This document shows, in pieces, positions 11,151 through 30,111 of a stretch of 64,000 nt of DNA (its first letter is position 1; every line of letters starts with the position of its first letter). The DNA comes from a plasmid. Location of the stretch: the sequence record NZ_CP044066.1; one strand, given 5' to 3'. The translations under genes and the position numbers were made by a program. Under the pieces are notes generated by a model. That model was not told the origin of the DNA, did not search any database, and saw only the letters and a program-made list of their open reading frames with translations.

Positions 11151-11183
11151 GACGACTTGACATTGTTGCCCTGTCGATAGGCT
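11151..11183 (+). promoter_or_regulatory. Conserved element promoter box, copy 1 (GACGACTTGACATTG-N11-TAGGCT)
   Basis: TTGACA sits at 11157..11162 and TAGGCT at 11178..11183, with 15-nt spacing identical to the other four copies. It precedes the 11211 operon. Confidence 0.5.
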
Positions 11184-11210
11184 GAGAAGGTCCAACACTT
11201 CTCCGTCGCC

Positions 11211-12362
11211 ATGCACCTGCCCCCTCCTCCGTTGCTCCCGCCGCGCTCCGCGCCGGCCCCTAACGTCCAGCATGCCCTCGATCGCATGGACGCGCTGATC
11301 GACCCGGCATGCGGTCTGCTGACCAACCCCGCAAACTCCGCAACCGCGCAGGCCAGCCGCCGCGACATGGCACTCATTCGTGCTGCATGCACGTCCGCCG
11401 CCCTTCCACCGCCCGGGCCCTCTCCAGTCTCCGGACACTGGCGAAGTGGCAATGGCGTGATCTCATGCGGAACGCTGCGCATCTTCAGCGAGAACTTCGA
11501 CACGAACCCAGCCGACCACATCAAGGCCGGCATCGTGCAATGGGTCTGCAACACGCTGAATGCCGCGCAACCGTCGCGCGCGCTCGCCGTGCAGCGGGAC
11601 TGCGGGCCGGAATCCATCTATTCCCCGCCCCTCCATCTCGTGAACCACCTGGCCGCGCTGATCGCCGCGGATCTGCTGGGGCAGGCAACGGACGATGACC
11701 GGCTGCTGGTATCTATCCGTCTGGTCGAACTGCTCGTGCGCGCGAACACGCACCCGCGCTGTCCGCCGCCGCCGGACGAGGCCCGAGGCGGCCGAGCGCG
11801 AGCACCTAGGCTGCGCGAACTGCGGCACCGGCATTTACCACGCGCTCACAAATCCGCCCGCCACGAGCTAACGATGCCCAAGGACGATCGCTACTTTGGC
11901 AAGACCATCGACGAGCACTACGACGCCGGTAGCTGCTGGTTGTGCGGAAAATCCGTCGAGTACTCCCTGGGCTATCACACGCCTACGGGTGCGCACTGGG
12001 ATTGTGTATCCGCGCTTCGAAGTCAGTTGGAGGATCTCGCCACCGACCGCCGGACAGTTCCGTATCTGGCCCGCGCCAACGGCGGCCACTACATCCACAC
12101 CGTCGATCCCAGGACTGCCAGGTCGCTATGCGGGCACACCCCCAAGGACACGGCGCGACGCATGCGCTCGCGCGGCCGATGGATCGAAGTCCGAGACGTG
12201 CCGCGCGGCTACCGACGTTGCCCGCACTGCGAGCGCCTGGCCTCGGCCAATGGCGCCGTTGAGTATGAATCGGCCGACGCCACCAGTCGGCATGACGTCA
12301 AGAACACCGAAACCGACCGCGACACCCGCACGCGAGATTTATTCGAGGAAGAATCGCCATGA
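11211..12362 (+). CDS. Hypothetical Cys-rich protein (CWLCG...HWDC...CGH...CPHCE)
   Basis: 383 aa. It is translationally coupled (ATGA overlap) to the Gp37/Gp68 gene. Confidence 0.5.
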   Translation: MHLPPPPLLPPRSAPAPNVQHALDRMDALIDPACGLLTNPANSATAQASRRDMALIRAACTSAALPPPGPSPVSGHWRSGNGVISCGTLRIFSENFDTNPADHIKAGIVQWVCNTLNAAQPSRALAVQRDCGPESIYSPPLHLVNHLAALIAADLLGQATDDDRLLVSIRLVELLVRANTHPRCPPPPDEARGGRARAPRLRELRHRHLPRAHKSARHELTMPKDDRYFGKTIDEHYDAGSCWLCGKSVEYSLGYHTPTGAHWDCVSALRSQLEDLATDRRTVPYLARANGGHYIHTVDPRTARSLCGHTPKDTARRMRSRGRWIEVRDVPRGYRRCPHCERLASANGAVEYESADATSRHDVKNTETDRDTRTRDLFEEESP

Positions 12363-13465
12363 GTGAAAACAGCGCCATCGAGTGGACAGACCACACGTTT
12401 AACGCTTGGGAAAAAGGCTGCCAGAAGGTCGGCCCCGGCTGCGATCACTGCTACGCCGAGACGCACAACGCGCGATTCGCTGGCGGTCACGCCGTGAACT
12501 GGGGACCGGGTGCGCCACGCCGACGCACCTCCCCTTCGAACTGGCGGAAGATGATCCGCTGGAACGCCGCGCACGCAGCCTTCGCCGCAGTGCACGGACG
12601 GCGACAGCGAGTCTTTTGTGCCAGCATGTCGGATGTCTTCGACAACGAAGTGCCGATCGAATGGTTCGTCGACATGCTCGACGTCTGGCGTGTAACGCCG
12701 AATCTCGACAAGCTGGTATTGACGAAGCGAATCGGCAACGCCACGAGGCGGCTGGCGGAAGCCTTCGACGCCCTGATGATGCGCAACGACTGGGCGGACA
12801 ACCCCCTTGTCCCGTGGCTGGCCACGTGGATCGCCGGGAACGCCCCTGCCGATATCTGGTTGGGAGCAACGGTCGTGAACCAGGCCGAAGCTGACCGCGA
12901 CATCCCGAAACTGCTTCGGGTCCCAGCGAAGATCCGCTTCCTCTCCATTGAGCCGCAGCTCGGCCATATCGAGGTGTTCTCGACGCTCACGGGCGAGCTC
13001 CTCCACACATCCGGCAACAAATACGATCCGGGGGCAATCGACTGGATCATCGCCGGCGGCGAAAGCGGTCCGGGTGCGCGATTCACGCATCCGGCCTGGC
13101 CACGCTCGCTGCGCGACCAGTGCGCCGCGGCCCATGTGCCGTTTCTGTTTAAGCAATGGGGACGCTGGCACACTGCATTCGTAGATATCGGCACCGGTAT
13201 ATCCGTGTACCGCGAGTTCACCAGCTTCCAGCAATGGGTGAACAAGGCCGACACGTGGGTGGCAGGCGGCATCTGTATCGACCGGCATGGAAGGCAACTC
13301 GAACGCGGCGAGGATTTTATGCGCGCCCGCGATGAAACCGCCTTCCCGGTCACCGTGCTCCATGACGTTGGCAAGAAGGCCGCAGGGCGGCTCCTTGATG
13401 GCGTGCTGCACGACGCGTTTCCCGTGACGGCTTTGGCCTTCCGACGGGCAACCGAACCGAAGTGA
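12359..13465 (+). CDS. Phage Gp37/Gp68 (DUF5131) family protein
   Basis: The N-terminal signature is IEWTDHTFNAWEKGCQKVGPGCDHCYAE, with DWIIAGGESGPGAR downstream. Confidence 0.75.
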   Translation: MSENSAIEWTDHTFNAWEKGCQKVGPGCDHCYAETHNARFAGGHAVNWGPGAPRRRTSPSNWRKMIRWNAAHAAFAAVHGRRQRVFCASMSDVFDNEVPIEWFVDMLDVWRVTPNLDKLVLTKRIGNATRRLAEAFDALMMRNDWADNPLVPWLATWIAGNAPADIWLGATVVNQAEADRDIPKLLRVPAKIRFLSIEPQLGHIEVFSTLTGELLHTSGNKYDPGAIDWIIAGGESGPGARFTHPAWPRSLRDQCAAAHVPFLFKQWGRWHTAFVDIGTGISVYREFTSFQQWVNKADTWVAGGICIDRHGRQLERGEDFMRARDETAFPVTVLHDVGKKAAGRLLDGVLHDAFPVTALAFRRATEPK

Positions 13466-13467
13466 CA

Positions 13468-13683
13468 ATGGCCCAGTACGACGACAACGAGCGCGAATAC
13501 CCCGAGCCCGAGACGATCCTTGCCATCCGTGGAGCAATCAACACAGGACTACATGGTGGCCCCATGGGCCCGCCCGGACACTGGCTGAACGAATTCTGGC
13601 GAATTGGCGCAGCGCTGCGAGACCATACGGCCATGTTGCATGGTCAATTGGACACGGGACCTAGCGCGGGCGGTGACTGCTGA
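13468..13683 (+). CDS. Small hypothetical protein (71 aa)
   Basis: An ORF immediately follows the Gp37/68 stop. Support is weak. Confidence 0.3.
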   Translation: MAQYDDNEREYPEPETILAIRGAINTGLHGGPMGPPGHWLNEFWRIGAALRDHTAMLHGQLDTGPSAGGDC

Positions 13684-14043
13684 CGTTTAGGTCTTGCTCG
13701 GCGGCCGACGGACCGCTCCCACGGCCGTCGGTAGTTTCGCGTTAGCCGGCGCGGCGCTCGTATTCGTTTCAGGGAATGCTGCGGCGTTCACACCTTACCG
13801 GAGAACACTGTCAGAGCCGTCGGAGGGGTCCCGCGCCGCGTCGGTGCATGGACGGGCGCTGCGGGGTTTCGATTAGCAAGTGCTTCATACACTCCGTAGC
13901 GAGCTGGAGAGGGAGCATTTCTGAGTCAGCCGACAGCATGACTGGATGGAGGTGCTTGGGAAGCCTCGACCCTAACCTGCGGCTGGCCTATTGCTGATGC
14001 TTTTGACGCAGTCCGTGGCGCCATTGCCTCGGCGCAAATGATC

Positions 14044-14089
14044 GTTTCAGTAACGGTCACGATGGGCTATACTTCACCGTTACTGAAAC
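14044..14089 (+). promoter_or_regulatory. Inverted-repeat operator upstream of the toxin-antitoxin operon
   Basis: GTTTCAGTAACGGT-N18-ACCGTTACTGAAAC is a perfect 14-bp inverted repeat, 15 nt upstream of the antitoxin start codon. Confidence 0.6.
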
Positions 14090-14104
14090 AAAAAGGAGCG
14101 AACG

Positions 14105-14317
14105 ATGGCACGAGACGTTGCGTTACGTGTCCGGGAACACCGAGCCGCCAAGATCGCCAAGGGGCTCAAGATGCATCAAATCTGGTTGCCAGATACCACT
14201 GCGCCGGGCTTCGCTGACATGTGCCGACGGGCCGTGGAGGGCCTGAAGAACGCACCTGAGCAGCAGGAAGCCCAAGAGGACATTTACGCTCTCTTTGACA
14301 TGGGCGACGACGAATGA
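14105..14317 (+). CDS. Type II antitoxin (partner of the PemK/MazF toxin)
   Basis: 70 aa with an AAGGAG RBS, an acidic C-terminus and an ATGA overlap with the toxin gene. Confidence 0.7.
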   Translation: MARDVALRVREHRAAKIAKGLKMHQIWLPDTTAPGFADMCRRAVEGLKNAPEQQEAQEDIYALFDMGDDE

Positions 14318-14640
14318 AGCGTGGCGATATTGTGACGGTGGCAGCTAAGGGCAGATTCACAAGTAAGCCGCGCCCGGCCGTTATCGTCTCGTCTGACTTC
14401 TTCGAAGGGCATAGCTCTGTGGCGGTCGTACTCCTGACCGGCGAAGTGAGGGACATCCCGATGCTCCGCTGGACAGTTGAACCGAGCGCACAGAATGGAC
14501 TGAAAAAGGCATCGCAGGTCCAGATTGACAAGATCACCGCAGTCGCAGTCGAAGACGTGGGCGAGCCGATCGGGCAACTGAGCACCGAAGACATGACAGA
14601 GATTACCCGCTACCTTGCGACGTACCTAGGCGTTAAGTAA
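14314..14640 (+). CDS. PemK/MazF-family endoribonuclease toxin
   Basis: MKRGDIVTVAAKGRFTSKPRPAVIVSSDFF...QIDKITAVA matches the typical PemK/MazF fold signature. Confidence 0.85.
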   Translation: MKRGDIVTVAAKGRFTSKPRPAVIVSSDFFEGHSSVAVVLLTGEVRDIPMLRWTVEPSAQNGLKKASQVQIDKITAVAVEDVGEPIGQLSTEDMTEITRYLATYLGVK

Positions 14641-15009
14641 CGCAGCACAATGGCAAGGCCGGGACCTAGCCTCGGCGCATCCCATGTGGGGCAGCTATGG
14701 CTCAGACGCTTTTTGGCATTCGCGGGCCGCGTCTCTTCCTGAAGACGACGAGGAAGAGGCAAGTCTTCTTCCGGCCTACATGCAATAGCAACGGAACGGC
14801 GCGCGTGTGATTGCGTTAGCGAAGCTGACGTTGGGGGGAGCAGGACGCAGGGACGCTGCTCGCATTCGGGACGTGGCCCGCATCAAGGCCGTGAGTCTTC
14901 CCAACTCAGGAGTCGTGTAGGCCGCTGATCGAACAGGACAGCCTCAAACGCCTGATATGGAAGCGTCTCGGGCAGGCATAATCCCGGCTTTCAGCACCGG
15001 ATTTGTGCC

Positions 15010-15603
15010 ATGCCCAGCGGCCTCCTCCAATGCGCCCACTGCGACGGCGCCCCACTCTTCATCGCCGGCCGCCTGCAGGCCCTGATCGTCTGCGAAGAAT
15101 GTGGGATCTCTACCCCACCCATTGACATGGACGGGCAGAACCGCGACGCCGCGTTCACTCAACTCAGCGCCATCTGGAACAACCGTGTCGAGCACCGCCC
15201 CGCCGACGCGACCGCCATCTCCATGACCGCGCGTCGCGCGTTGACGGCCTCCGACATCCCGTACTTCCTGAATCTTGTTGCCTTGACGGCGGCCGGCGAT
15301 TGGGCAACGAATGGCCCGCGGCTGTCGGCCATGGCCGCAGCACTCGCGCAGCCAGGATACGAGTTTAAGCATGTCGATCCGCCCGAGACCGTCATCTCGC
15401 AGGCCGTGCGTTACCAGAAGCTGCTCAAGCGCGCCAAGATCATTTATGTGGACGGTGCCCCGATGGTTCGCTTCGAGCCGGTGCCCGCGCTTTGCGCCGA
15501 GATCGCCGAGGAAGCGCTGGCCGACAGGGATTGGCCGCTGCTGGATCTTCACGAGTACATTGGCAAGGCCATCGACGGCGTGCCAGACCACTGGCAGCCT
15601 TGA
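15010..15603 (+). CDS. Hypothetical protein with an N-terminal CxxC...CxxC zinc ribbon (Lar-like restriction-alleviation-type N-terminus)
   Basis: The N-terminal sequence is LQCAHCDGAPLFIAG...CEECGIS, in a protein of 197 aa. Confidence 0.4.
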   Translation: MPSGLLQCAHCDGAPLFIAGRLQALIVCEECGISTPPIDMDGQNRDAAFTQLSAIWNNRVEHRPADATAISMTARRALTASDIPYFLNLVALTAAGDWATNGPRLSAMAAALAQPGYEFKHVDPPETVISQAVRYQKLLKRAKIIYVDGAPMVRFEPVPALCAEIAEEALADRDWPLLDLHEYIGKAIDGVPDHWQP

Positions 15604-15626
15604 CATTGCCACGCCGCGGGTAGGCT
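15594..15626 (+). promoter_or_regulatory. Conserved element promoter box, copy 2
   Basis: CAGCCTTGACATTGCC-N-TAGGCT, with TTGACA at 15600..15605 and TAGGCT at 15621..15626. It precedes the nuclease gene. Confidence 0.5.
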
Positions 15627-15655
15627 AGGTTTAACTCTGGCCATCAATTTCCCCA

Positions 15656-16549
15656 ATGTTCCGCCGACCGCTTCTCATCTTCGCCCTCGCCCTGACCGCA
15701 GCAAATGCCAGTGGCAAGGAGTCCGCATCCTGTGCGCATGTACTGGAATCTGGCCAGCCTGCCGTTCATCGTTCGGCGGCTGAATCGCAACTGCTCTGCT
15801 ACCGTGCCTTCGCGGTGCTCTACTCAGGCCAGACCCGGACCGCCCTATGGTCGGCCGAGCGGCTGACCGGGGCAGCGGCCGATGCGGCCCGCTCGTTGCC
15901 GCGCGATAGCGACTTCTACGAGGAGGCCCGCGTGCCTCCGGCCGATCGCGCGAAGCTGAAGGATTACGCCCGATCTGGAATGGACCGCGGCCACCTCGCT
16001 CCAAGCGGGGACTTCCCCGACAAGGCTTCGCAGGCCGAGAGCTTCAGCCTCGCCAACGTCGTACCGCAGGACAGAGATTCGAATCGCCGCACGTGGAGCC
16101 ACATCGAAACGTCCACGCGGCGACTAGCGCGGCAATATGGCGTGATCCATGTCGTGACCGGCCCAGCGTTTACGCGGGACAGCCCGACGCTCAACGGTCG
16201 CATTCGGATCCCGGCGTTCCTCTGGAAGGCGATCTATGTGCCAGGCCTCGGCGCGGCCGCGTATGTTGTTCGCAACGACGCGACGCCGGCGTACAGCGTC
16301 ACCAGCATCGAAGAGCTTGCGCAGTTCAGCGGCATCGATCCGTTTCCTGCGCTCGCCCGAAGCCAGCGCGCCGCCGCCATCGACCTCCCCCCGCCGGCGC
16401 CCCATCCGGGCGAAAGGGCCGCCCGGCGCGTTCCATTCGCGGCGCTTGTCTCCAGTGGCACCACGGATGTGGGCAGCAACATATCATTGGATGCGCTAGC
16501 TGCGCGCGCTGGCGCACTTGCCGGCCGCGTTACCGCTTACCTGAAGTAG
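15656..16549 (+). CDS. Secreted DNA/RNA non-specific endonuclease (EndA/NucM/Serratia-nuclease family)
   Basis: Signal peptide MFRRPLLIFALALTAANA; active-site motif DRGHLAP; the NVVPQ motif is also present. Confidence 0.8.
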   Translation: MFRRPLLIFALALTAANASGKESASCAHVLESGQPAVHRSAAESQLLCYRAFAVLYSGQTRTALWSAERLTGAAADAARSLPRDSDFYEEARVPPADRAKLKDYARSGMDRGHLAPSGDFPDKASQAESFSLANVVPQDRDSNRRTWSHIETSTRRLARQYGVIHVVTGPAFTRDSPTLNGRIRIPAFLWKAIYVPGLGAAAYVVRNDATPAYSVTSIEELAQFSGIDPFPALARSQRAAAIDLPPPAPHPGERAARRVPFAALVSSGTTDVGSNISLDALAARAGALAGRVTAYLK

Positions 16550-16590
16550 TGGGTCCGATCGCGAAGAAAAACGTTCCTTTCGAACAATGC

Positions 16591-16621
16591 AAAAGAGGCG
16601 TCCGAAGACGCCTCTTTTGTG
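16591..16621. terminator. Bidirectional rho-independent terminator
   Basis: The stem AGAGGCGTC/GACGCCTCT has a 4-nt CGAA loop and is flanked by an A-run and a T-run. It sits between the nuclease gene and the convergent 16639..17565 gene. Confidence 0.65.
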
Positions 16622-16638
16622 TTCCAAGCGCGGCGCCG

Positions 16639-17565: not shown

Positions 17566-17848
17566 GACCGCCTCCGTTTACAGCCTCCCTGAATTTCTGC
17601 CCAGCCTTGAATCTGACCGTCTTTGCAGCCGCAATTGCGATTTCCTCTCCCGTGCGCGGATTGCGCGCCATGCGGGCAACACGGGCCCCGGGATTGAAGG
17701 AGCCGAAGCCGACCAGCGACAGCGTCGCGCCGCTGGCAACCGCGTCGATGATCGCATTCAGCGTAGCGTTGAGAACCTGCTCGGCCTTGGCCTTCGACAC
17801 GCCATCGACGCCCGCCGCGATCACGTCGATCAATTCCGCTTTGTTCAC
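17558..17848 (-). CDS. hupB: HU-family nucleoid DNA-binding protein
   Basis: MNKAELIDVIAAGVDGVSKAKAEQVLNATLNAIIDAVASGATLSLVGFGSF...RNPRTGEEI is unmistakably HU/IHF-like, at 96 aa. Confidence 0.9.
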   Translation of the reverse strand: MNKAELIDVIAAGVDGVSKAKAEQVLNATLNAIIDAVASGATLSLVGFGSFNPGARVARMARNPRTGEEIAIAAAKTVRFKAGQKFREAVNGGGRG

Positions 17849-18569: not shown

Positions 18570-18622
18570 TTATGTCGCGTTACCAAGGAAATAGGTCGAG
18601 CATGCTCGAACTTTCCGGCGCA
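18570..18622. repeat. Repeated regulatory element, copy a (contains the perfect palindrome TCGAGCATGCTCGA at 18596..18609)
   Basis: TTTATGTCGCGTTACCAAGGAAATAGGTCGAGCATGCTCGAACTTTCCGGC is near-identical to copy c (46880..46940). Confidence 0.7.
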
Positions 18623-18632
18623 ACCATCTATC

Positions 18633-19793
18633 TCAGGACTGGTCTCCGGACTCATAACGCTCGAACAGCCGATAAAGTGCACGTCGGCTAATCCCCAGAG
18701 ATAGTGCAGCCCGGCTCTTATTCCCCTGGTGCTCCGCAACAGCGTGAACAGCCTGCTTCGGACTGATCACAGGACGTCTCTTCGCCTCCTGCGTCGCGTA
18801 GGTAGACAAGTAGGCGTTGGCCTTACTGACACGACTGTGCCCCGCGGCCTCCGCCACCCGTCGCTGCCCTTCCCGGTGCACCTCACGATCAATTCTGTGT
18901 GAGCCTTCCTTGATCGGCGCGAGCGCACCGGTGATGTCCGAATAAAGTCCTTGCAGGTACTCGTGGCGCAGGCCGTGCGCAGTCCGTCCCAACCGGCCGT
19001 CTTTCGTTACGCCATGTTTGGCCAGCAGATCGTAGAAGTGATCGGACCAGGAGTCATAACTGTGCGCATCAGGAATAGTGGAACCCGTCCGGCTGTTCGT
19101 GAAGCGTGCGGCGATCTCCAGCAGGTCATATTGCTCTTTTGGCCGCGTGATGGGGACGGGCCGGCTCCTGCCGCCCTTCGACCCCTCGCTGACATAGATG
19201 GCACCGTCTCGCAGATCCCGCACGGGCCGGAATTTGAATGCCTCCTCAACGCGAAGGCCGAATTTCCACATCAGGCGTAGTTGAACCCCTGCAAGGACAT
19301 CTTCTGCCTCGACTCTCCGGATCTCTGCTTCGATATCGATGCCCTTCGCCGACCAGCTCAGATCGTCTTGCGCTGTGTAATAGCGTTTCAAGCCTGCTGC
19401 TTTCCTATCCACGTAGCCTTCGAGCGTCAGCACGAGATTCGGCTTTCCCATCCAGTGGGCGATCGCCCGCAGGTACGTCAGCTTGTTCTCAATCGTACCG
19501 GCCGTCTGCCCCTTCTTCACCCAATACGTCACCAGCCACGCCACGTGCTTGTGACGGATCGACCAGGGCGACTCAATGGCATACCCACCGTCGTTCCGCA
19601 GCTCACGAATCGCCGCACATAAGCCGACGAGCCGATACTCCTGCGTTTTAACGCTCAGTGCATTTCGACTACGGCGCGTCTGGCTGTGAATCCGATCGAC
19701 ATTGTCCTCAAACAATGCGATCAACTCGCTCTCAAGGCGCTTTGGGAAGCCGTAGCTACGGATCTTCCCCCGGTAGTCAATTCTGATGCCCAT
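18633..19793 (-). CDS. Tyrosine recombinase (integrase family) with a C-terminal Fis-type HTH extension
   Basis: HGLRHEY box and AGHSRVSKANAYLSTY catalytic region, followed by KSRAALSLGISRRALYRLFERYE (HTH_8-like). An AGGAAA RBS precedes the ATG at 19793. Confidence 0.7.
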   Translation of the reverse strand: MGIRIDYRGKIRSYGFPKRLESELIALFEDNVDRIHSQTRRSRNALSVKTQEYRLVGLCAAIRELRNDGGYAIESPWSIRHKHVAWLVTYWVKKGQTAGTIENKLTYLRAIAHWMGKPNLVLTLEGYVDRKAAGLKRYYTAQDDLSWSAKGIDIEAEIRRVEAEDVLAGVQLRLMWKFGLRVEEAFKFRPVRDLRDGAIYVSEGSKGGRSRPVPITRPKEQYDLLEIAARFTNSRTGSTIPDAHSYDSWSDHFYDLLAKHGVTKDGRLGRTAHGLRHEYLQGLYSDITGALAPIKEGSHRIDREVHREGQRRVAEAAGHSRVSKANAYLSTYATQEAKRRPVISPKQAVHAVAEHQGNKSRAALSLGISRRALYRLFERYESGDQS

Positions 19794-20610
19794 CCTGTCT
19801 TTCCTGTTGCTCGTGCTGAGCCGCCGCGCTACGCGTTTCCGCGCACTTTGCTGTCCCATCCCGCAGTTGAAAGCCCCGTTCATCCAACCGCCGCCGACTG
19901 ATTGTCCCCATCGGCACAGGGCACTGCCTTCCTATCCTTTAGCGATAACATCGATCAACCAGACACAGGGAAGAACTGTGCTCCGGCTGCCCGTGAAGCT
20001 GCCCAAGCGGCTCGCGCCGCCCGGTCTCCACGGATACCCCGCCTGCCGCGTGCATGACGCGTTCCGCAACCCGCGGACGTTCCGGGGTCGCAAGCCTGCT
20101 GGGCAAATCGTTCTTGCGCATTCTGTTCCGGCTGCGCCTACCGGTCGTCATGTGAAGGGATTCGCGATAGCCGAAGGCCCAATCGCTTCCAATCCCCCGT
20201 CCCCAAGTCGATTCACCTTGGCCGCAGTGTGTCGGGCCGCCTGAACCGTACCCAGCGCTATCGCTGTAAGGACGTATCTTCCGTTGGATGATGGGTGTGC
20301 GACTGTGCGCCTCCCAATCGGTCTCAATATGTTCCAGCGCACGCTTGGGCGCTGAGATCGAGTGTTATCGCGGTGTGCAGCCTTCCTCAGTGTCGGCCAC
20401 TTTCTGCTTGATTAGACTGAAAAAAATGCCGGTTCAATTTCCGGCGGGCACAGTGCGGCTTCGCGAGGTTCTTCGCACGGAAGAACCGGATGCCGTTGTT
20501 GCCGCGCGAAGGCGGCGAGGTCGATGCGTCGGGGACGCGGTAAGAGCCCACAGAATAGCCGAACACCGGCGCATCGAACAACCGAAACGCGCGCGATTTT
20601 GGGAGGTTTC

Positions 20611-20643
20611 GACGACTTGACATTGAATTCTGCTCGGTAGAGT
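20611..20643 (+). promoter_or_regulatory. Conserved element promoter box, copy 3 (upstream of parM)
   Basis: GACGACTTGACATTG-N11-TAGAGT, with TTGACA at 20617..20622. Confidence 0.5.
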
Positions 20644-20825: not shown

Positions 20826-21857
20826 ATGCAGCAACAGTACGGCGAATCGAAGATCGCAAAGACTGCCACCCTTGCGGTCGATGTGGGCTATGGCAACACC
20901 AAGACCGCCTTTGCGCTCGGTTCCGAGATCAAAACGAGCATGTTCCCTTCGCTCGCCCCGCAGGCGGCCACCTCGAGCCTCACGCCCGAAAGCGGCACGA
21001 TCTTCCAGGCGCGCAAGGTGGTCAATGTCACGGTGGACGGCGCCCGGTATGAAGTCGGGCCCGGCGTGTCGCTGAGCGGGGCGTACAACACCGGACGTGC
21101 GCTGGCGGAGGATTACGTCACGACGCCGAACTATGCGGCGCTTCTCGCTGGAGCCCTCTTCTACTCCGGCGCTGCCGAAATCGATCGACTCGTCCTTGGC
21201 CTGCCGGTTCACAACACGCAGAAGTACGCCGGCTTCCTGCGCGACCGGTTCGTCGGTCAGCACGACTTCGGCTGGGGCGAAGTAATTGTGAAATCTGTGA
21301 TGCCGCTACCGCAGCCCCTCGGCACGCTCGTGACCTACATGCAGCAAAGCGGCAAGCAATACGACCCCGAAAACTCGTATCTCGTGATCGACGTGGGGTA
21401 CTTCACGACGGACTGGATCGTGGCCCGCGGCTACACGATGGACGATACCCGCAGCGGTGGCGTACCAGGTGGCGCGGCGCGCGTATATCAGCAGATCGCC
21501 AGCCTGATCGCGGCCGAGCAGGGTCAGCCGTTTGACGCGATCGAGCGCGTCGATCACGCGCTGCGCACGACGGGCAAGCTGCTGTTCTACAAACAGGATC
21601 TCGAACTGAGCCGCTACCTCCCCGAGGCAATGGCTGTCACCAATCCGGCGATCAAGGAGCTGCAATCGCGGGTGGGGCGCACCGATGATATCCGGGCCGT
21701 CATCCTGACCGGCGGCGGTGCGGCCCTCTACGCGCCGACGATTCGCGCGGCCTTCCCGCTGAACGACATTCACATGATGGACTCGCCGTGCTTCGCCAAC
21801 GTGCGAGGTTTCTACACCATTGGCGCCGCACGTCAGGCGACCAAGGCGGCCGCTTGA
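20826..21857 (+). CDS. ParM/StbA-family actin-like segregation ATPase
   Basis: The N-terminal phosphate-1 motif is LAVDVGYGNTKTAF, with a second motif LVIDVGYFTTDW, in an actin-fold protein of 343 aa. Confidence 0.7.
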   Translation: MQQQYGESKIAKTATLAVDVGYGNTKTAFALGSEIKTSMFPSLAPQAATSSLTPESGTIFQARKVVNVTVDGARYEVGPGVSLSGAYNTGRALAEDYVTTPNYAALLAGALFYSGAAEIDRLVLGLPVHNTQKYAGFLRDRFVGQHDFGWGEVIVKSVMPLPQPLGTLVTYMQQSGKQYDPENSYLVIDVGYFTTDWIVARGYTMDDTRSGGVPGGAARVYQQIASLIAAEQGQPFDAIERVDHALRTTGKLLFYKQDLELSRYLPEAMAVTNPAIKELQSRVGRTDDIRAVILTGGGAALYAPTIRAAFPLNDIHMMDSPCFANVRGFYTIGAARQATKAAA

Positions 21858-22314: not shown

Positions 22315-22353
22315 GGACTTGACATACATATCCCTCTGGCAAGCTTGTACTAT
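22313..22353 (+). promoter_or_regulatory. Conserved element promoter box, copy 4 (variant with downstream TACTAT)
   Basis: GAGGACTTGACATAC...TACTAT, with TTGACA at 22319..22324. It precedes a small ORF. Confidence 0.4.
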
Positions 22354-22377: not shown

Positions 22378-22497
22378 ATGTTCGATTACCTGTCCACCAC
22401 CGCTGACGTGAATCGCTTTGTCTTCTACGTCGCAATCGGCTTCTGCGTCCTGCAAGCCGTCATCGAGGTCTACAAGGTGGTTCGCCGCCGTAACTAA
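22378..22497 (+). CDS. Small hydrophobic peptide (39 aa)
   Basis: GAGGAG RBS, sequence MFDYLSTTADVNRFVFYVAIGFCVLQAVIEVYKVVRRRN, followed by a strong terminator. Confidence 0.35.
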   Translation: MFDYLSTTADVNRFVFYVAIGFCVLQAVIEVYKVVRRRN

Positions 22498-23957: not shown

Positions 23958-24177
23958 GGGATGACTCCTTTTGGGAGTGGTGGGTCGATGCCTGAGACAG
24001 GCGAAGGAACGCTTGCTCAAAAGACATCCCGGCGGCGAGCCAGAAGGTCTTTTCAGCATGGCGTTTGCGGTTGAGCGAAAGGGAGATGCGCTGCGGGACG
24101 GCAGCCAGGAGGAAGGAAAGAACTGCTACCGGAAAACCGGCAGCAGGAGGAACGTGTAACGGTTGGCGAACCCCGGA

Positions 24178-24738
24178 TCAGCGTCGGAACGGAATGCCGT
24201 CCAACGCCAGGGGCGCCGCAAAGGGAATGTCGTCGTCCATATCTCCGAAGCCGCCATCGCGCGGTGCACCGCCGCCGCCATAGCTTCCAGCTGACTGCTG
24301 TTCGCTGTTGGAGGGCTGGCGCTGCTGGCCGCGGCCCGCGCCTCGCTGGGAGCCTCCGCCGTACGCCCCCGCATCGGCGCCGTCGTCATCGCCCGGCCGG
24401 CCACCCCGGCCCCCCAGCATCTGCATCTGGTCGGCCACGATCTCGGTGCTGTACCTGTCCTGCCCCGACTGATCCTGCCACTTACGTGTGCGGATGCGGC
24501 CTTCGATATAGACGGAAGAGCCCTTCTTCAAGTACTGGCCGACGATCTCCGCGAGCTTGCCGAAGAACGCAATGCGATGCCACTCGGTGGCTTCCTTAAA
24601 CTCGCCGCTTTGCTTGTCCTTGTAGCGGTCGGTCGTCGCGAGCCGGATGTTGGCCACGGCGTCGCCGCTGGGCATGTAGCGGACTTCAGGGTCTGCCCCG
24701 AGGTTACCGACGAGGATGACTTTGTTGACGGATGCCAT
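24178..24738 (-). CDS. ssb: Single-stranded DNA-binding protein
   Basis: [56 protein letters not shown], with a Gly-rich tail ending in DDDIPF. Confidence 0.92.
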
Positions 24739-24747
24739 GTAGTTCCT

Positions 24748-25536
24748 TCAGTGGATGCGATTGATTGACCAGACCCAGCGGTCCCAAAGCTTCTGCTGGT
24801 TGGTCGCACGATCAATAATGGGACGCCCGGTCTTCTGATCGAAGGCCGGCACTTTTTCCTTATGAAGCCGGCGAATGCCAACGCGCTCGCCTAGCTCGCA
24901 ATGGGCGCTGGCCAGGACGTCCTTGAGGCCTTCGCCCTGCAGCACCTTCTCGCCAGCACTGGTTTCGAGCTTCACGGCGAACGAGGTGTAGGTCGGCTTG
25001 CCGCCCGGCTTGGGCTTGCGATTGGGAAACTCCATCTCGCCCCACTCCACCAGCTTTCCGACTGTGTAGTTGGACGAGGAAGCTTCAGCAGCGCGCGGTT
25101 TGACATGAGGCTGCGCGACGGCGTACTCATCGCGCGCCGCTCCACTGGGTTGCGTCTCCGGCTGGGCGCTCTTTCGAGCGGGCTGGATCGATTGCATCCT
25201 CGCGTCACGCACTACGTCTTCAGCGACCTTCTGCGGCGTGACGCCAGGCTGATCGTAGGTGCGAACCTTGCTCCAGCGCGGCACGACGTCGGGCAGTAGC
25301 TTGTTACCGAATGCGGTGTGGCGAATGCGACGATCGAACTCGGCCACGAAGTGCACCACGCGATCTCCTTCATCTCGAAACAGATGAGGGATGCCATCGA
25401 TCTGCATGTGGAACTCGTTATCGGCGCCAGTGCCGACCGCGATCATGTCCGCCGGCGAGGGGTGGTCGCTCTGGAGCTCAGCACGGTCGCTGACCAGCGC
25501 GGCAGCGACCTGCTTGATTAGATTGAGCAGTGACAT
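24748..25536 (-). CDS. Hypothetical protein
   Basis: 262 aa, in an operon with ssb and the primase. Confidence 0.5.
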   Translation of the reverse strand: MSLLNLIKQVAAALVSDRAELQSDHPSPADMIAVGTGADNEFHMQIDGIPHLFRDEGDRVVHFVAEFDRRIRHTAFGNKLLPDVVPRWSKVRTYDQPGVTPQKVAEDVVRDARMQSIQPARKSAQPETQPSGAARDEYAVAQPHVKPRAAEASSSNYTVGKLVEWGEMEFPNRKPKPGGKPTYTSFAVKLETSAGEKVLQGEGLKDVLASAHCELGERVGIRRLHKEKVPAFDQKTGRPIIDRATNQQKLWDRWVWSINRIH

Positions 25537-25543
25537 GGGGATT

Positions 25544-25966
25544 TCATAATAGAGAGCCGTAGCACTGGCGCTTGACCTCCTCGAGGACAGCCGTCAGGCG
25601 AGCGTGACCAAAGACAACGTCTTGCAGGACGTCAGGGCTCACGCCGCTGATGTCGCAGACGTACTTGTAGGGAATGGCGCCATCCCAGAACCCGAAAATC
25701 CAGCCGATCGTCATGAAGAGCTCTTTGCGATCGACGGCTTCGTTACGGATGCACTCCCGGAACAGCTTTGCGCAGTCCAGCAGCGATTCGGGCATGTTGA
25801 CGCCATGGCGGCTGCCACAGGCGAGGTCGATGAGCGCATCGGTCAGGCGCTCGCGCAGCGACTCGTCGACTGGCTCTCGCCGGCTGCGATCCGTCGGGGG
25901 AGGAGCAACGATGGCGGTCGCTTCTCCGAAGAAGTCCAGTTGCCATCCTGCGTTGGTTGTTTCCAT
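25544..25966 (-). CDS. Hypothetical protein
   Basis: 140 aa, in the same operon. Confidence 0.45.
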   Translation of the reverse strand: METTNAGWQLDFFGEATAIVAPPPTDRSRREPVDESLRERLTDALIDLACGSRHGVNMPESLLDCAKLFRECIRNEAVDRKELFMTIGWIFGFWDGAIPYKYVCDISGVSPDVLQDVVFGHARLTAVLEEVKRQCYGSLL

Positions 25967-26065
25967 GATGGTCTCCGGACGGGCGTCCGAAGACCCACCT
26001 GCCGGCGGGTATCGGATACCCGCGACAGGTGGAAGAAGGCCGCCCGGGAACCGGGCGGCGGTGGA

Positions 26066-26389
26066 TCAGGGACGGTTGTCCGTCCCGGTTCGACGAATCG
26101 GTGTCACAACTGCCGAGCGTTCGTACTTGCGCTCGGGCTGCTCCTCCGGTTGAGGCGCGTCGGCTTTCGGCTTGGACGGATAGTCCGGCATCGATACCTT
26201 CGGTGCTGCAGGGATGCTGCGGCTGCTGTTGACGGCCTTGTTGTACAGATACGAGATCCCAACGACCGTCACGAATACACCGACGGGAAACGACTGGGAT
26301 GCGAGATACAGCACCATGCAGAGCACGAGCAGTTGCAGGGGGCGCTTGACGAGATGAGCAAGGGATTCCACGGTTTCTCTCCGAAACAT
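26066..26389 (-). CDS. Hypothetical membrane protein
   Basis: 107 aa with one or two TM helices (LLVLCMVLYLASQSFPVGVFVTVVGISYLY). It is the first gene of the minus-strand block. Confidence 0.4.
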   Translation of the reverse strand: MFRRETVESLAHLVKRPLQLLVLCMVLYLASQSFPVGVFVTVVGISYLYNKAVNSSRSIPAAPKVSMPDYPSKPKADAPQPEEQPERKYERSAVVTPIRRTGTDNRP

Positions 26390-26607
26390 TGCAAGGGATG
26401 GTCCTGACGGATGTCAGGCGCTGGTTCGATGCTCAATGAGCAAGGAAGCCCGTGGACTGCGCGCGTGAACGCACTTGCGTCATGCCGCGGCATGGCGCAA
26501 AGGCGCTGGTGCTGGGGAAAGAAGGGAATGGGCGAGCGGCACGTAGCCAACTTCGCGCTGATCGATGCGTGTGGACGCGGTGTTCCGTAAATCCTAGCCG
26601 AAGATTC

Positions 26608-26680
26608 GAGGCTCAAGAACCCGGAAAGCTCACCAAAACCATACGTCTTTCTGCCGAAATAGGTCGAGCATGCTCGGTAG
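26608..26680. repeat. Repeated regulatory element, copy b, in the divergent promoter region (palindrome TCGAGCATGCTCGg at 26664..26677)
   Basis: GAGGCTCAAGAACCCGGAAAGCTCACCAAAACCATACGTCTTTCTGCCGAAATAGGTCGAGCATGCTCGG shares the GAAAGCTCACCAA and palindrome blocks with copy c. Confidence 0.7.
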
Positions 26681-26985
26681 ATTTCATAATACGAAACAAA
26701 TGTATCTTCAGAACGGATACAAACGATTTAGATATTACTTAGATCTGATCTTCTTTTTATGCAGCTCTATCCCGTAAGTTGGGGGTAACTCACTAAAGCT
26801 GTCCTTTCTCACCCCGATAAGACGCATACATGTAACCGTCTTAAGGCCGCCTTCCGAAAAAGGGGCCCGAAAAAACGTAGCTTTCTGCCGGCTGCTGTGG
26901 CCGGGCGTTTCGTAATCTCTGCGGAGGCTTGACAACGCAAATCAAACGCTACGCTGGTTGTCATGTTCATCAACGAGAGTGAAAC

Positions 26986-28209
26986 ATGCCAGAAAAGAAG
27001 AAGAAACTTGATGGTCTATCGGTGCCGCCTGCGGAGTCGGCCAAGAAAGCCGATATCGTAGATTTTCCTGTCTCACGCCTGCAGGCCTCCATGGACGCTC
27101 GGTTGCGCGAGATCATGGGCCCCAGCCTCAGCGAGGATCAGCTTGGCCGCCTTGGCGACGCCATCCATAACATTCGGCGGGTGCGCGAGAAGATCGAGCG
27201 CGCGCTGCTCGAGATGGGCTCCGAGTTGCAGAACATTCATGACCTGTCGATGGAATCGGTCATCGGGGAGTTCGGCGACACGCGCGGGGCGCGGATGCGT
27301 GGCTGGACCAAGTTCAATCAACTCGCGAAGGAACTGCTCGAGCTTCAGCCCAACCAGGCGAAGCTGTATCTTGGCCTGTATGTCCGCTTCCAGAACCACA
27401 ATGGCGCACTGAGCAAGCTCAATACCGGCGAACTGATGATCCTGCAGCCCGCCGAGTACACCGATGAGGAAGTCGACGCTGTCATCGAGTTCAAGGACAC
27501 CGACCCAACGTACCGCCGCGGGAAGATCCGTGACTTCATCAAGCAACTGCGACGAAAGCACGAGCAGGTCATCGATGTGTCCACCCGTCTGGACATTGCA
27601 ACCTCTGAACTTGCCAACACGGTTCAGGACAATGCTGACAAAGACCTCGAAATCCGTCGGCTCAACGAAGAAGTATCGCGGCTTGCTGCGGAGCGCGATG
27701 CCGATCGCGATGCCCTGAGTCACGTGCGCGAAGAACTCACCCGGCATAACCATTCGCAGAGCATGCAGCAGATGCGTATCCAGGATCTGGAGCGCGAGAC
27801 CCGGGAGTTGCAGGAGCGCGTAGCGAGCGCGCGCGCGAATGCGCGCACCGAGACGGTGGAGGTACCGATTGTCCCCCCCGGCTACGCTACGATCGAAGAG
27901 GCGCTGGCCGCGAAGAATTCGGAGTTGGAAGCAGCACGGAGCCAGCTTGCCGATATCGAAAACCGGCGCCTCGGGATCGAACAAGAGATCAAGGACCGCG
28001 CTAGCGTTCTGGATCGTCGCGCGAAGGCCGACGGCGCACTCGCGACGCTTGTCGATCAGTTTGAGAAGACGGTCTCGGCGTTCGCGGCCACGCAACTGGC
28101 CGTGCAGATGGACGGCAGCGTCGATCAGTTCCAATCGACGCTCACGGTGCTTGACAGCATCGTGGGTCGCCTCCACGCAGATATTCGCGCTGCCCTCCAA
28201 ACTCGCTGA
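26986..28209 (+). CDS. Coiled-coil protein (407 aa), first gene of the regulatory operon
   Basis: It has long heptad-rich segments (IRRLNEEVSRLAAERDADRDALSHVREEL...). A TTGACA-N16-TACGCT promoter candidate lies at 26927..26954. Confidence 0.5.
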   Translation: MPEKKKKLDGLSVPPAESAKKADIVDFPVSRLQASMDARLREIMGPSLSEDQLGRLGDAIHNIRRVREKIERALLEMGSELQNIHDLSMESVIGEFGDTRGARMRGWTKFNQLAKELLELQPNQAKLYLGLYVRFQNHNGALSKLNTGELMILQPAEYTDEEVDAVIEFKDTDPTYRRGKIRDFIKQLRRKHEQVIDVSTRLDIATSELANTVQDNADKDLEIRRLNEEVSRLAAERDADRDALSHVREELTRHNHSQSMQQMRIQDLERETRELQERVASARANARTETVEVPIVPPGYATIEEALAAKNSELEAARSQLADIENRRLGIEQEIKDRASVLDRRAKADGALATLVDQFEKTVSAFAATQLAVQMDGSVDQFQSTLTVLDSIVGRLHADIRAALQTR

Positions 28210-28220
28210 TCAGACCTGCC

Positions 28221-29396
28221 ATGCAACAACAATCTTTGACGGCGGATTTTGAGCGCCTGCAATTGACCCGAATGACGTGCGATCGCATTCGTTCGGCCAA
28301 CTACCATCTCACCGCTCACCTCGCCGAAGCGCTGAGCGCGCACCCCCAGCTGGATGCCGTTCTGCACATTGATCGCGCGCATATCGACAAGCTGCGGAAG
28401 GCCGAGGCAACGCAACGGGACCTGATGGGTACGCCCTTCCTCGTTGTGGTACCGACACTCATGGACGTGCACGACTGGAAGTGTCTGACGGAGGGTACGA
28501 CTACCACCGTCGCCGTGGACAAGCTCCGCCACCAACTGCCCAAATGGAGCAACGACGACAAGCTTCGCCTCTTCTTCAACAACCGCCATTACATCTGGCT
28601 GATGGTCGAGCTGCTGCATGTGAGTATCCTCGCTGCGCCGCTCCTCGGCATCAGCAAAGAGCTCGCCGAGTACCTTCGATCGCTGCCGCAGCACGTTCTC
28701 GACATGGTTATCGCGAAGGTCGATTTCCCGATCTTCCGCTGGTGCCTCGACAACAGGCGCTTCTGGATCGACTTCGAAACATCGCGCCTGTCCTCGGATG
28801 CGATCGGCCACCATTTCTTGGCCACCGTGCCCATCCGCGCCGATCGGATCGAGGCGAACCAGAGTTGGACGAACCTCCGCCTCGACCCGTTGAAGAAGAA
28901 GGTCTACGGTGAATTGATGATCCGGCAATACTGTCGCGCCTCCACGGTCACGTCGCTGCTCGGTATCAATTCGACCAAGACTCGCCAGCTCTTCCAGTCA
29001 ATTCATGGAGCCTCTTCGCCGACGGGTCAGCTGCCGACCTCGACAGCATGGTACTTCGAACAACCGTTGCATCGCATGCAGGCAACGATGATGGTGACGC
29101 TGTACCGGATCGGTCTCGCCTTTGGGGGCAGTGTCCCTGAAGCATTCATTGCCGCCTACGACTTGTTCGACAAGTTCTTCGGCCCCGATTCGCGGATCTC
29201 CGCAGACCGGGCGTGCCACATCTGCCGATCGATGTCCACGGACACACAGCTGGACCTTGCCCCCTGCCGAAGTTGCCGCACCCCTTACCTTATCGCCAAC
29301 ACAGCGCCCAAGATCGAGCTCAGCAACAGCTTCTCGTGCCCGGGCTGCAGCGGGGCGCTGGGGAACGGACAACTCGGCCGCCGTCGCAAGCAATAA
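28221..29396 (+). CDS. Putative transcriptional activator with an FlhC-like C-terminal domain (zinc-binding Cys4) and a unique 230-aa N-terminal extension
   Basis: GQLPTSTAWYFEQPLHRMQATMMVTLYRIGLAFGGSVPEAFIAAYDLF resembles the FlhC core. The CHIC...CRSC...CPGC Cys cluster parallels the FlhC zinc site. Confidence 0.5.
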   Translation: MQQQSLTADFERLQLTRMTCDRIRSANYHLTAHLAEALSAHPQLDAVLHIDRAHIDKLRKAEATQRDLMGTPFLVVVPTLMDVHDWKCLTEGTTTTVAVDKLRHQLPKWSNDDKLRLFFNNRHYIWLMVELLHVSILAAPLLGISKELAEYLRSLPQHVLDMVIAKVDFPIFRWCLDNRRFWIDFETSRLSSDAIGHHFLATVPIRADRIEANQSWTNLRLDPLKKKVYGELMIRQYCRASTVTSLLGINSTKTRQLFQSIHGASSPTGQLPTSTAWYFEQPLHRMQATMMVTLYRIGLAFGGSVPEAFIAAYDLFDKFFGPDSRISADRACHICRSMSTDTQLDLAPCRSCRTPYLIANTAPKIELSNSFSCPGCSGALGNGQLGRRRKQ

Positions 29397-29408
29397 GAGA
29401 GGGAAGCC

Positions 29409-29762
29409 ATGGAATTCGTACTCAAGAAAATGCTCGAGATCGCGTTCTTGCACGTGCTCCCCTGCTATTTCGCCTTCAAGTGGGCGAAAAGAGTCGGGAA
29501 GAATCCGTGGATGTGGGCGGTGCTCTGTTTCCTATTTTCGTACTTCGCACTGTTCTTGTTCGGCTTTCTACAGAACCGCAAGCGGCTACCCACCTACGAG
29601 GAATACCGCAGGGCGCATCCGAGCCACACCACGGCGAACGGCGTCTCCTGCAGCGAATGCGGATCGCGCAGCATCCGCATGTGGCGTCACCAGGTGTTCC
29701 TTCATGTGTACCAGTACCACCGGTGCAATCATTGCGGAACCACCCTTTATAGATCGCGTTAG
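29409..29762 (+). CDS. Membrane protein with a C-terminal zinc ribbon
   Basis: Two TM helices are followed by CSECG...CNHCG. Confidence 0.4.
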   Translation: MEFVLKKMLEIAFLHVLPCYFAFKWAKRVGKNPWMWAVLCFLFSYFALFLFGFLQNRKRLPTYEEYRRAHPSHTTANGVSCSECGSRSIRMWRHQVFLHVYQYHRCNHCGTTLYRSR

Positions 29763-29873
29763 ATAGCCTTACCCCCCGCAACGGGGGTAAAGGATAGACG
29801 TCAGACCGCCGTTGTAATAGCGGTCGCGGTTCTTGTATCCTTGCGATCCTGTCGAATTTGTTACTTCCCAACG

Positions 29874-30071
29874 ATGCGCCTGCTCCTCGCTATCCTGCTC
29901 CCGTGGTTCCAGTTCTTCACGATCGGGCGACCGTTCGCCGGGATCATCTGCTTCATCCTTCAAAGCACCATTATCGGCTGGATTCCGGCGGCGATCTGGT
30001 CCACCTACGCGCTGAGCCAGTACAAGACTGATAAGAAGATTGAGGCCGCTCTCAACAATCGCGGCCGCTAG
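29874..30071 (+). CDS. YqaE/Pmp3-family small membrane proteolipid
   Basis: MRLLLAILLPWFQFFTIGRPFAGIICFILQSTIIGWIPAAIWSTYAL fits the UPF0057 pattern. Confidence 0.55.
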   Translation: MRLLLAILLPWFQFFTIGRPFAGIICFILQSTIIGWIPAAIWSTYALSQYKTDKKIEAALNNRGR

Positions 30072-30078
30072 GCATTTG

Positions 30079-30111
30079 GCACGACTTGACATTGCCGCTC
30101 CGTCTGTAGGA
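30079..30111 (+). promoter_or_regulatory. Conserved element promoter box, copy 5
   Basis: GCACGACTTGACATTG-N11-TAGGAT, with TTGACA at 30085..30090. It precedes the lipoprotein gene. Confidence 0.5.

Follow-up and report, generated by a model that had tools for sequence, protein, structure and literature searches.

Probable conditional sigma70-type promoters with a fixed 15-bp spacer on one strand of a pMOL28/pHG1-type megaplasmid backbone

In the IncP-1 plasmid RK2, a palindromic operator for the KorA and KorB repressors is repeated beside otherwise ordinary promoters. In the integrative and conjugative element (ICE) ICEclc, the FlhC-like protein BisC binds a weak inverted repeat and the ParB-like protein BisD loads at the palindromic site bisS, from which it spreads directionally (PMC12409273). 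At the level of the core promoter, relaxed DNA gives short spacers a relative advantage of about two-fold per bp for a change in superhelical density of 0.03 (Forquet et al., 2022, PMC9303308). The stretch analysed here, 64,000 nucleotides from the plasmid with the sequence record NZ_CP044066.1 (hereafter the window, meaning the whole stretch), is the backbone of a pMOL28/pHG1-type Burkholderiaceae megaplasmid, and literature searches found no account of backbone gene regulation in plasmids of the pMOL28/pHG1 family. The window carries seven copies of a box of the form cTTGACA-N15-TAnnnT, all on the plus strand. We give a probability of roughly 60% to the reading that these boxes are sigma70-type core promoters of the rightward backbone operons, detuned by a short spacer and a G+C-rich -10 hexamer and needing extra input. 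The seven boxes are the following:

7615-7642, plus strand: box b0, cTCGACA-N15-TATCGT, sequence cTCGACAttgcgccgccgccggTATCGT, TCGACA at 7616, 28 nt before the ATG at 7671
11156-11183, plus strand: box b1, cTTGACAttg-N12-TAGGCT, sequence ggacgacTTGACAttgttgccctgtcgaTAGGCT, TTGACA at 11157, 27 nt before the ATG at 11211
15599-15626, plus strand: box b2, cTTGACAttg-N12-TAGGCT, sequence ggcagccTTGACAttgccacgccgcgggTAGGCT, TTGACA at 15600, 29 nt before the ATG at 15656
20616-20643, plus strand: box b3, cTTGACAttg-N12-TAGAGT, sequence cgacgacTTGACAttgaattctgctcggTAGAGT, TTGACA at 20617
22318-22345, plus strand: box b4, a variant, cTTGACAtac-N12-CAAGCT, sequence tgaggacTTGACAtacatatccctctggCAAGCT, TTGACA at 22319, 33 nt before the ATG at 22379 of a small peptide
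26928-26955, plus strand: box b6, cTTGACAacg-N12-TACGCT, sequence cTTGACAacgcaaatcaaacgcTACGCT, TTGACA at 26929, 30 nt before the ATG at 26986
30085-30112, plus strand: box b5, cTTGACAttg-N12-TAGGAT, sequence gcacgacTTGACAttgccgctccgtctgTAGGAT, TTGACA at 30086, 57 nt before the ATG at 30170

The repetition of these boxes is far beyond chance. The motif CTTGACA-N15-TANNNT matched five times in the window against 0.02 matches expected from shuffled sequences, its N17 version did not match at all, and a scan for canonical promoters with 16-18 bp spacers between 11 and 31 kb gave two sites against 4.6 expected. The -35 hexamer was an exact TTGACA at six of the seven sites and TCGACA at the seventh, and the spacer was 15 bp at all seven, while the -10 hexamer varied between TAGGCT (twice), TAGAGT, TAGGAT, TACGCT, TATCGT and, in b4, CAAGCT; the latter keeps the A at the second and the T at the sixth position and is directly preceded by TGn. 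A weight matrix trained solely on sites from other plasmids returned exactly these seven boxes as its seven best matches in the window, all on the plus strand. The top five scored above every shuffle, while those at 7616 (score 17.8) and 22319 fell inside the shuffle range and are supported by orthology.

Five of the boxes had been recognised in the original prediction and all five were recovered at their places, but those at 26929 and 7616 had been overlooked. The distance of 15 nt between TTGACA and the second hexamer had been given correctly; the pattern as written, ACGACTTGACATTG-N11-TAGG(C/A)T, had zero matches even with three mismatches allowed, because the gap after TTGACATTG is 12 nt and not 11. 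The string CTTGACATTG is exact in four of the five sites first noted. The second element TAGG(C/A)T holds for three of these five, the sites at 20617 and 22319 having TAGAGT and CAAGCT, and of the supposedly conserved flank GACGAC only ACGAC was present, at three window sites alone (11157, 20617 and 30086), with no conservation in relatives. A position 40 to 60 nt upstream of the operon starts is roughly right when counted from the start of the box, except for the parM-like gene, which begins 182 nt downstream. From the end of the -10 hexamer to the ATG the distance is 27-33 nt at five sites and 57 nt at 30086.

The box family was followed through a set of 38 related sequences (919 kb), including 30 loci gathered through their FlhC-family genes by a search with a 5-sequence FlhC alignment from genomes of Cupriavidus, Burkholderia, Paraburkholderia, Caballeronia and Ralstonia. 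At orthologous intergenic positions each related plasmid carried cTTGAC(T/A)-N15-TA(G/C/A)(G/A)NT on the same strand. The strict form TTGAC[AT]-N15-TAnnnT matched 94 times in the 38 sequences, always on the strand of the FlhC-family gene, while the same hexamers at spacings of 12, 13, 14, 16, 17, 18 and 19 gave no match on either strand of the 919 kb. Since many of the 94 matches are orthologous, they are not independent events, and sites more than 70% identical were removed, leaving 56 whose spacers were essentially unrelated in sequence. All 56 had C at position -1 of the -35 hexamer, preceded by a weak 'ga', and 44 had T after this hexamer; the second and third positions before the -10 were G (44/56) and C (41/56), the G corresponding to G-14 of an extended -10; the T, A and T of the -10 were informative, and a purine stood two bases after it in 54. 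Outside these sigma70 elements no column between -100 and +90 of the 56 sites exceeded 0.5 bit of information except an isolated one at +74. In orthologous promoters the spacing was kept and the spacer sequences differed, and conservation of hexamers and spacing across genera while spacers diverge rules out mere duplication. The complete pMOL28 (171 kb, both strands) contained seven strict N15 matches, all on the plus strand, and three for all other spacings from 12 to 20 combined.

Individual boxes could be traced as well. The box b0, which precedes genes for a hypothetical protein, a UvrD-like 3'-5' exonuclease, a DUF1173 protein and an FtsK-gamma-like protein, is orthologous to perfect boxes in the related loci L001 (13410), L002 (4083) and L004 (1330) and in pMOL28 (94414). 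The operon behind b1 encodes a protein of 383 amino acids (aa) with no Pfam match, earlier described as Cys-rich, and a DUF5131 (phage Gp37-Gp68) protein; its box has orthologues at L001 16941 (TTGTCT), L002 4798, L004 5102 and pMOL28 97945. The box b2 stands before a DNA/RNA non-specific endonuclease gene and corresponds to TTGACT-N15-CAAGCT in L001, L002, L004 and pMOL28. The TGA at 15601-15603 inside its -35 is the stop codon of the open reading frame 15010-15603, an overlap kept in relatives; the counterpart of this frame in pHG1 is annotated as a Lar family restriction alleviation protein. The orthologues of b3 in most related loci read TTGACT-N15-TAGAGT, TAGATT or TAGACT, and those of b6, whose operon encodes a coiled-coil protein (407 aa) and an FlhC-family protein (391 aa), were present in 20+ loci. 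The gene behind b5 encodes 271 aa with no Pfam match (a lipoprotein in the original prediction) and is annotated in relatives as a CAP-domain or hypothetical protein. In the b5 group (L007 33585-33625, L014 12620-12660 and others) the sequence beside the -35 is complementary to that just before the -10, and this repeat differs between plasmids by two compensatory changes (CCGACTT..AAGTCGG versus CGGGCTT..AAGCCCG); it is weak in the window copy.

The gene behind b3 encodes the ParM-like PRTRC system protein D (20826-21857) and has a repeat-rich leader of 182 nt. Between 20650 and 20825 this leader contains three ATCTGTCAG repeats and inverted repeats of 17-21 nt, and in leaders of the pMOL28 type GTGCCAC/GTGGCAC repeats stand in place of ATCTGTCAG. 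It is likely to be a parC-type centromere/operator.

That the boxes are promoters, as originally proposed, is supported by two family members in pMOL28 with a transcription start site (TSS) mapped at the expected place (PMC9045368). The data come from Cupriavidus metallidurans CH34, in which 5,763 TSSs were mapped (Grosse et al., 2022, PMC9045368), and both starts were assigned by these authors to RpoD and to the 'strong' class (PMC9045368). TSS_132671+5 has its -35 TTGACCGCCA at -32 and its -10 GGCAAGCTAC at -12 and lies 21 nt before Rmet_6401 (PMC9045368); this site is the pMOL28 orthologue of b4, TTGACC-N16-TGgCAAGCT, with the start 5 nt after the -10. TSS_9289+5 has TGGCTTGACA at -37 and GATACAATGG at -14 (PMC9045368) and belongs to the N15 box at pMOL28 9256 (TTGACA-N15-TACAAT), with the start exactly 7 nt after TACAAT. 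Both active boxes carry a compensation, either a near-consensus -10 or N16 together with TGn. The eight others of the ten pMOL28 boxes had no listed TSS, the box at 84441, a relaxed match, not having been looked up and that at 19211 only at two exact positions; the look-up was made by 4-5-digit coordinate prefixes for one condition, so that a start lying more than about 5 nt away from its expected place could be missed. Apart from those at 19211 and 84441, the boxes lacking a TSS precede the exonuclease, Gp37 and FlhC operons and the genes for the endonuclease, PRTRC-D and the CAP-like protein; seven N15 boxes without a start have a -10 that is G+C-rich or otherwise non-consensus.

The spacer sets the boxes apart from the promoters of this host. 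The 33 housekeeping promoters of C. metallidurans with a TTG -35 (Table 2 of PMC9045368) have spacers of 16-20 bp, with a mean of 17.5, and none has 15. The value of 15.8 +/- 1.4 bp given in PMC9045368 runs to the first base of a 10-nt model, which lies two bases ahead of the hexamer; recomputed from hexamer to hexamer, the range is 16-20 bp. The boxes depart from the sigma70 norm of 17 +/- 1 bp, and their 15 bp is usable by sigma70 but suboptimal. A strict cross-genus, single-strand N15 promoter family is not described in two TSS papers on C. metallidurans.

The most likely reader of the boxes, judged from their sequence, is the host housekeeping sigma70 (RpoD) holoenzyme. The boxes combine an extended -35, cTTGAC[T/A]T, and a TAnnnT -10 with G/C-rich inner bases; they have a purine-rich discriminator and in most cases a G at -14, and the conserved positions coincide exactly with the sigma70 contacts. 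The short, strictly kept gap probably makes the promoters conditional: a consensus -35 followed by a spacer of 15 bp and a G+C-rich -10 would give low basal activity, weak or silent in the established plasmid, and firing would occur only with extra input. One candidate for such input is a plasmid regulator acting at nearby GAAAGC boxes (described below), possibly the FlhC-family complex, whose own operon has such a promoter. The other is relaxed DNA, for instance just after conjugative entry or in stationary phase, which is a candidate because short spacers are favoured by relaxation. The genes placed under this control would be the helicase/exonuclease-DUF1173 operon, the DUF5131 (Gp37/68) operon, the nuclease and the ParM-like partition gene, together with the small peptide, the regulator operon and the 271-aa protein.

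Several points weigh against this interpretation. The TSS support comes from pMOL28 and not from the plasmid of the window, and the absence of a TSS at eight of ten pMOL28 members under one condition fits conditional promoters but would also fit a family of which not all members are functional. The rigid 15 bp and the invariant C at -1 are stricter than the sigma70 norm and leave room for an extra specific factor. That relaxation upon entry or the FlhC-family protein provides the input is what we infer, and a G+C-rich -10, which favours negative supercoiling for melting, pulls against the relaxation idea. The original prediction had asked for something more than bare sigma70; this is reasonable, since the spacing of 15 bp has been confirmed, is non-canonical and is kept from genus to genus, but the FlhC-like and extracytoplasmic function (ECF) candidates it named are not supported.

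A further reading, which we regard as rather unlikely, would make the fixed 15-bp geometry a dedicated regulatory device that places all the rightward genes under a single physical or protein signal. The signal might be DNA relaxation at conjugative entry, or else a directional, clamp-like or sigma-remodelling FlhC-family/coiled-coil activator acting from the GAAAGC boxes and from TCGAGCATGCTCGA palindromes, much as BisD/BisC acts from bisS in ICEclc. If such a device existed, it would mean unidirectional, plasmid-wide, switch-like expression beyond what host sigma70 alone provides.

The putative regulator and its candidate sites were located as follows:

26986-29396, plus strand: candidate regulator operon, coiled-coil gene (26986-28209) and FlhC-family gene (28221-29396)
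46734-47146: divergent promoter region of the type IV secretion system (T4SS) with an inverted pair of GAAAGC boxes (46734-46761 and 47119-47146), one beside each operon
46875-46902: degenerate third GAAAGC box in the same T4SS promoter region, with a palindrome at 46915-46928
26624-26651, plus strand: GAAAGC box followed after 12 nt by the palindrome TCGAGCATGCTCGg (26664-26677), between the ssb/primase and FlhC operons
7525-7551 and 26856-26885: degenerate GAAAGC boxes
20584-20610, plus strand: degenerate GAAAGC-type box, GAAACG-N15-GGTTTC, 6 nt before the -35 of b3

The product of 28221-29396 matched Pfam FlhC with 33.4 bits (cut-off 27) and was also recognised by NCBIfam; it has 391 aa, with a long N-terminal extension and a C-terminal FlhC domain in which the Cys4 site is conserved in the alignment, and it matched the FlhC structures 8j56 and 2avu in PDB weakly. 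Its 407-aa coiled-coil partner showed no FlhD or ParB signature and no match in the PDB sequence search. The GAAAGC box was found by aligning the divergent T4SS promoter regions of seven plasmids, after which a scan with a matrix built from the copies yielded the box at 26624 and the degenerate ones at 7525, 20584, 26856 and 46875. It is 28 bp long, GAAAGCT-N4-AAAATCGC-N2-AGCTTTC, with palindromic arms and an asymmetric core, and different genera share it at the divergent T4SS promoters and close to some of the N15 promoters. The T4SS promoters that it flanks have no good -35. In Burkholderia plasmids a full GAAAGC box occupies the place of the degenerate one before b3 (L005 10938, L019 946, L021 986); copies in Burkholderia stand immediately upstream of N15 promoters, and their distances to the -35 are 6, 8, 15, 34-37, 43-45 and 63-64 nt, a roughly helical phasing; a fixed distance between GAAAGC box and N15 promoter was not found, and the boxes accompany only a subset of the promoters. 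Weak GAAAGC-like matches also occur upstream of rep, at 62326 and 62388-62415.

The CATG-centred palindrome TCGAGCATGCTCGA is present in the window at 18596-18609, 26664-26677 and 46915-46928, and in a weaker form at 40016. Where it follows a GAAAGC-type box it starts 13 nt past the box in all 12 cases, and its arms covary in relatives (CTGAGCATGCTCAG, GGAACATGTTCC). It could be an operator or a loading site similar to parS or bisS. The integrase-domain gene is closely followed by the copy at 18596. Just past the GAAAGC box and palindrome, between the ssb/primase and FlhC operons, there is an A+T-rich stretch of 180 bp with inverted repeats (26680-26860), which could be a small-RNA gene or an oriT; Rfam found nothing in it. 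Near the T4SS promoters, a conserved hairpin GCCCGC-CAACAATA-GCGGGC (47160-47189) ends directly before the ATG at 47187 of the VirB11-like ATPase gene, and the transcript may be leaderless or its translation controlled there.

Among the competing explanations, the box itself may be the binding site of an FlhC-family activator complex that recruits RNA polymerase, through cTTGACwT and TAnnnT or through the flank of the -35, in which case b6 would provide positive autoregulation as for BisDC in ICEclc. This we consider unlikely. The box-bearing loci were all collected through their FlhC-family gene, with which the boxes share a strict orientation, but this co-occurrence was built in by the construction of the data set. 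The regulator operon does have its own box, and most boxes are silent in pMOL28, in which IS1086 separates this operon from its promoter, but the pMOL28 box at 9256 is active though the FlhC operon is cut off in the same way. BisDC of ICEclc acts directionally on about 11 promoters (PMC12409273), whereas the targets of FlhDC, SetCD and AcaCD have no -35 and the activator site overlaps its place (PMC4542580), while the boxes have a consensus one. Their conserved positions are those of sigma70 (the -35 hexamer, G-14, T-12, A-11 and T-7), with no common motif upstream, and the separate palindromic 28-bp GAAAGC box is hypothesised to be a better candidate site for the FlhC-family complex than the TTGACA box. 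The suggestion that the FlhC-like activator reads the box directly is for these reasons (the perfect -35, the lack of a shared upstream motif and the existence of the GAAAGC box) an improbable one.

The regulator operon has been disturbed repeatedly. IS1086 in pMOL28 (L007 29359-30550) and IS66 in pENH92 (L002 16128-18873), two insertion sequences, each split the FlhC-family operon from its N15 promoter, and the pMOL28-like plasmid L001 has lost the operon with its boxes still present; together these events suggest recurrent selection to silence the regulator. As the deletion in L001 looks recent, the persistence of the boxes there is uninformative.

It is distinctly unlikely that an alternative sigma factor (RpoS, RpoH, an ECF or a plasmid-encoded one), with a geometry that demands exactly 15 bp, reads the boxes. 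RpoS favours C at -13, and the -35 of RpoH is CTTGAA. The invariant C at -1 resembles the latter, but the -35 of the boxes is the sigma70 consensus, their -10 is TAnnnT and not the CCCCATnT of RpoH or the CGT type of ECF factors, and the -13 position holds G or A instead of the C favoured by RpoS. The rigid spacing, with no N14 or N16-19 site beside 94 strict matches, would suit such a factor, as would the co-activation of the transfer-competence promoters of ICEclc by RpoS (PMC12409273), but both mapped pMOL28 starts were scored RpoD by their authors (PMC9045368). The ECF-type sigma of the original prediction fails in particular: the boxes contain no ECF -35 or -10, an AAC -35 being absent, and no sigma-factor domain was found in the approximately 48 proteins scanned. 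Pfam searches of these proteins likewise gave no anti-sigma domain. Sigma54 was rejected too, as there is no GG-N10-GC; a TGGCA-like string occurs upstream of b5 and b2 only and does not fit this pattern.

No more probable is the opposite arrangement, in which the promoters are strong and are silenced by a plasmid-wide repressor with an operator overlapping the -35 (cTTGACwTyG), Kor-like as in IncP-1 and relieved by zygotic induction on entry. Conservation does reach beyond the -35 hexamer, by 1 nt on the upstream side and by 1-3 nt on the downstream side, and the silence of most pMOL28 boxes at steady state is compatible with repression, but the extra conserved bases are few, no dyad symmetry is common to all boxes and no helix-turn-helix repressor gene was identified beside them. 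The inverted repeats that span some promoters, TGACAAC..GTTGTCA in the b6 group and CCGACTT..AAGTCGG in the b5 group, could be read as operators; however, they are group-specific and one of them covaries, unlike a protein operator.

Single-strand promoters of the Frpo/ssi type on the incoming transferred strand, or functionless duplicated sequence, are hardly credible: all boxes point in one direction, several stand before candidate genes for nucleic-acid processing or restriction evasion (DUF5131/Gp37-68, nuclease, helicase/exonuclease) and the gene content and orientation resemble leading regions, but the folds of 140-nt DNA windows around the seven boxes on both strands (z from -1.4 to +1.3) were no more stable than those of shuffles and so do not support an Frpo-type promoter, the hexamers do not lie within long hairpins, hexamers and spacing are conserved across genera with divergent spacers, and the TSSs were mapped in non-conjugating cells.

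The replicon to which the boxes belong was identified from its gene content. The window encodes a Rep_3 initiator (60835-62163, minus strand) and ParB (63153-63923, minus strand), and is therefore part of a plasmid and not of an ICE. It also encodes a T4SS coupling protein, a UvrD-like helicase, a type IVb pilus/T4SS block, SSB, a primase-helicase zinc-ribbon protein, HU, the ParM-like PRTRC system protein D, a DNA/RNA non-specific endonuclease, a DUF5131 (phage Gp37/Gp68) protein, a DUF1173 protein and an N6 methylase. The gene order matches that of circular megaplasmids, namely pMOL28 with a close relative, pENH92 and pHG1, and the same order is found in plasmids of C. taiwanensis, B. gladioli and R. 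solanacearum. The integrase-domain gene (18633-19883, minus strand) has an internal backbone position in all related plasmids, including the circular pMOL28, pHG1 and pENH92, and consequently marks no element boundary. The earlier framing of the element as an ICE fails on both counts, while its claim that the genes left of the 'integrase' belong to the same element as the transfer genes on the right was borne out. A gene for a PemK/MazF-type toxin (14314-14640) lies between the DUF5131 operon and the Lar-like gene and is absent from this place in pMOL28 and pHG1. Rfam at gathering thresholds gave no match in the window.

The plasmids concerned, pMOL28, pHG1 and their relatives in Cupriavidus, Burkholderia, Paraburkholderia, Caballeronia and Ralstonia, carry genes for metal resistance, hydrogen oxidation, symbiosis and catabolism. 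For this family the results provide a testable regulatory grammar, consisting of the one-strand cTTGACwT-N15-TAnnnT, the 28-bp GAAAGC box and the CATG-centred palindrome. The family is also a natural test of the 15-bp spacer: among dozens of diverged promoters with a perfect -35 none has drifted to 16-18 bp, which argues that the suboptimal geometry is itself under selection. Such selection bears on the design of supercoiling-sensing or activator-dependent promoters.

Among known promoters, the boxes resemble the canonical RpoD type (TTGACA-N17-TATAAT) in a -35 that is identical or one base off, in A-11, T-7 and a frequent G-14, in the place of the TSS, 5-7 nt past the -10 for both mapped starts, and in their position directly upstream of operons; they differ from it in the spacing fixed at 15 bp, the G/C-rich inner -10, the invariant C at -1 and the restriction to one strand of the replicon. 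The repetition of one short motif at most backbone promoters, by which establishment, partition and transfer might be controlled together, is shared with the Kor regulon, but here the repeated feature is the promoter geometry itself. With SetCD of SXT/R391, AcaCD of IncC and BisDC of ICEclc the system has in common a conjugative element, an FlhC-family gene in a two-gene operon, a motif at many backbone promoters and possible autoregulation, directional action being a feature of ICEclc. In contrast to the promoters of these systems, which have no -35 and an overlapping activator site, the boxes themselves form a perfect -35/-10 pair, and it is the GAAAGC box, not the TTGACA box, that resembles an activator site of this kind. 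ICEclc BisDC is, by analogy, the closest described counterpart of the GAAAGC/FlhC-family system, though the partner protein in the window has no ParB signature.

For spacers of 15-16 bp a relative advantage on relaxed DNA has been both predicted and observed (PMC9303308), as would fit genes required soon after DNA entry or in stationary phase. That finding is a statistical tendency among unrelated chromosomal promoters, whereas the boxes are an entire set of plasmid promoters that all keep 15 bp. In C. metallidurans itself, 'sba' promoters have a well-placed -10 and a -35 off the optimum, and additional factors were proposed for them (Nies et al., 2026, PMC13492112). They are a heterogeneous genome-wide class with the -35 scattered on either side of the optimum, while the boxes are homogeneous, with a consensus -35 off by exactly 2 bp.

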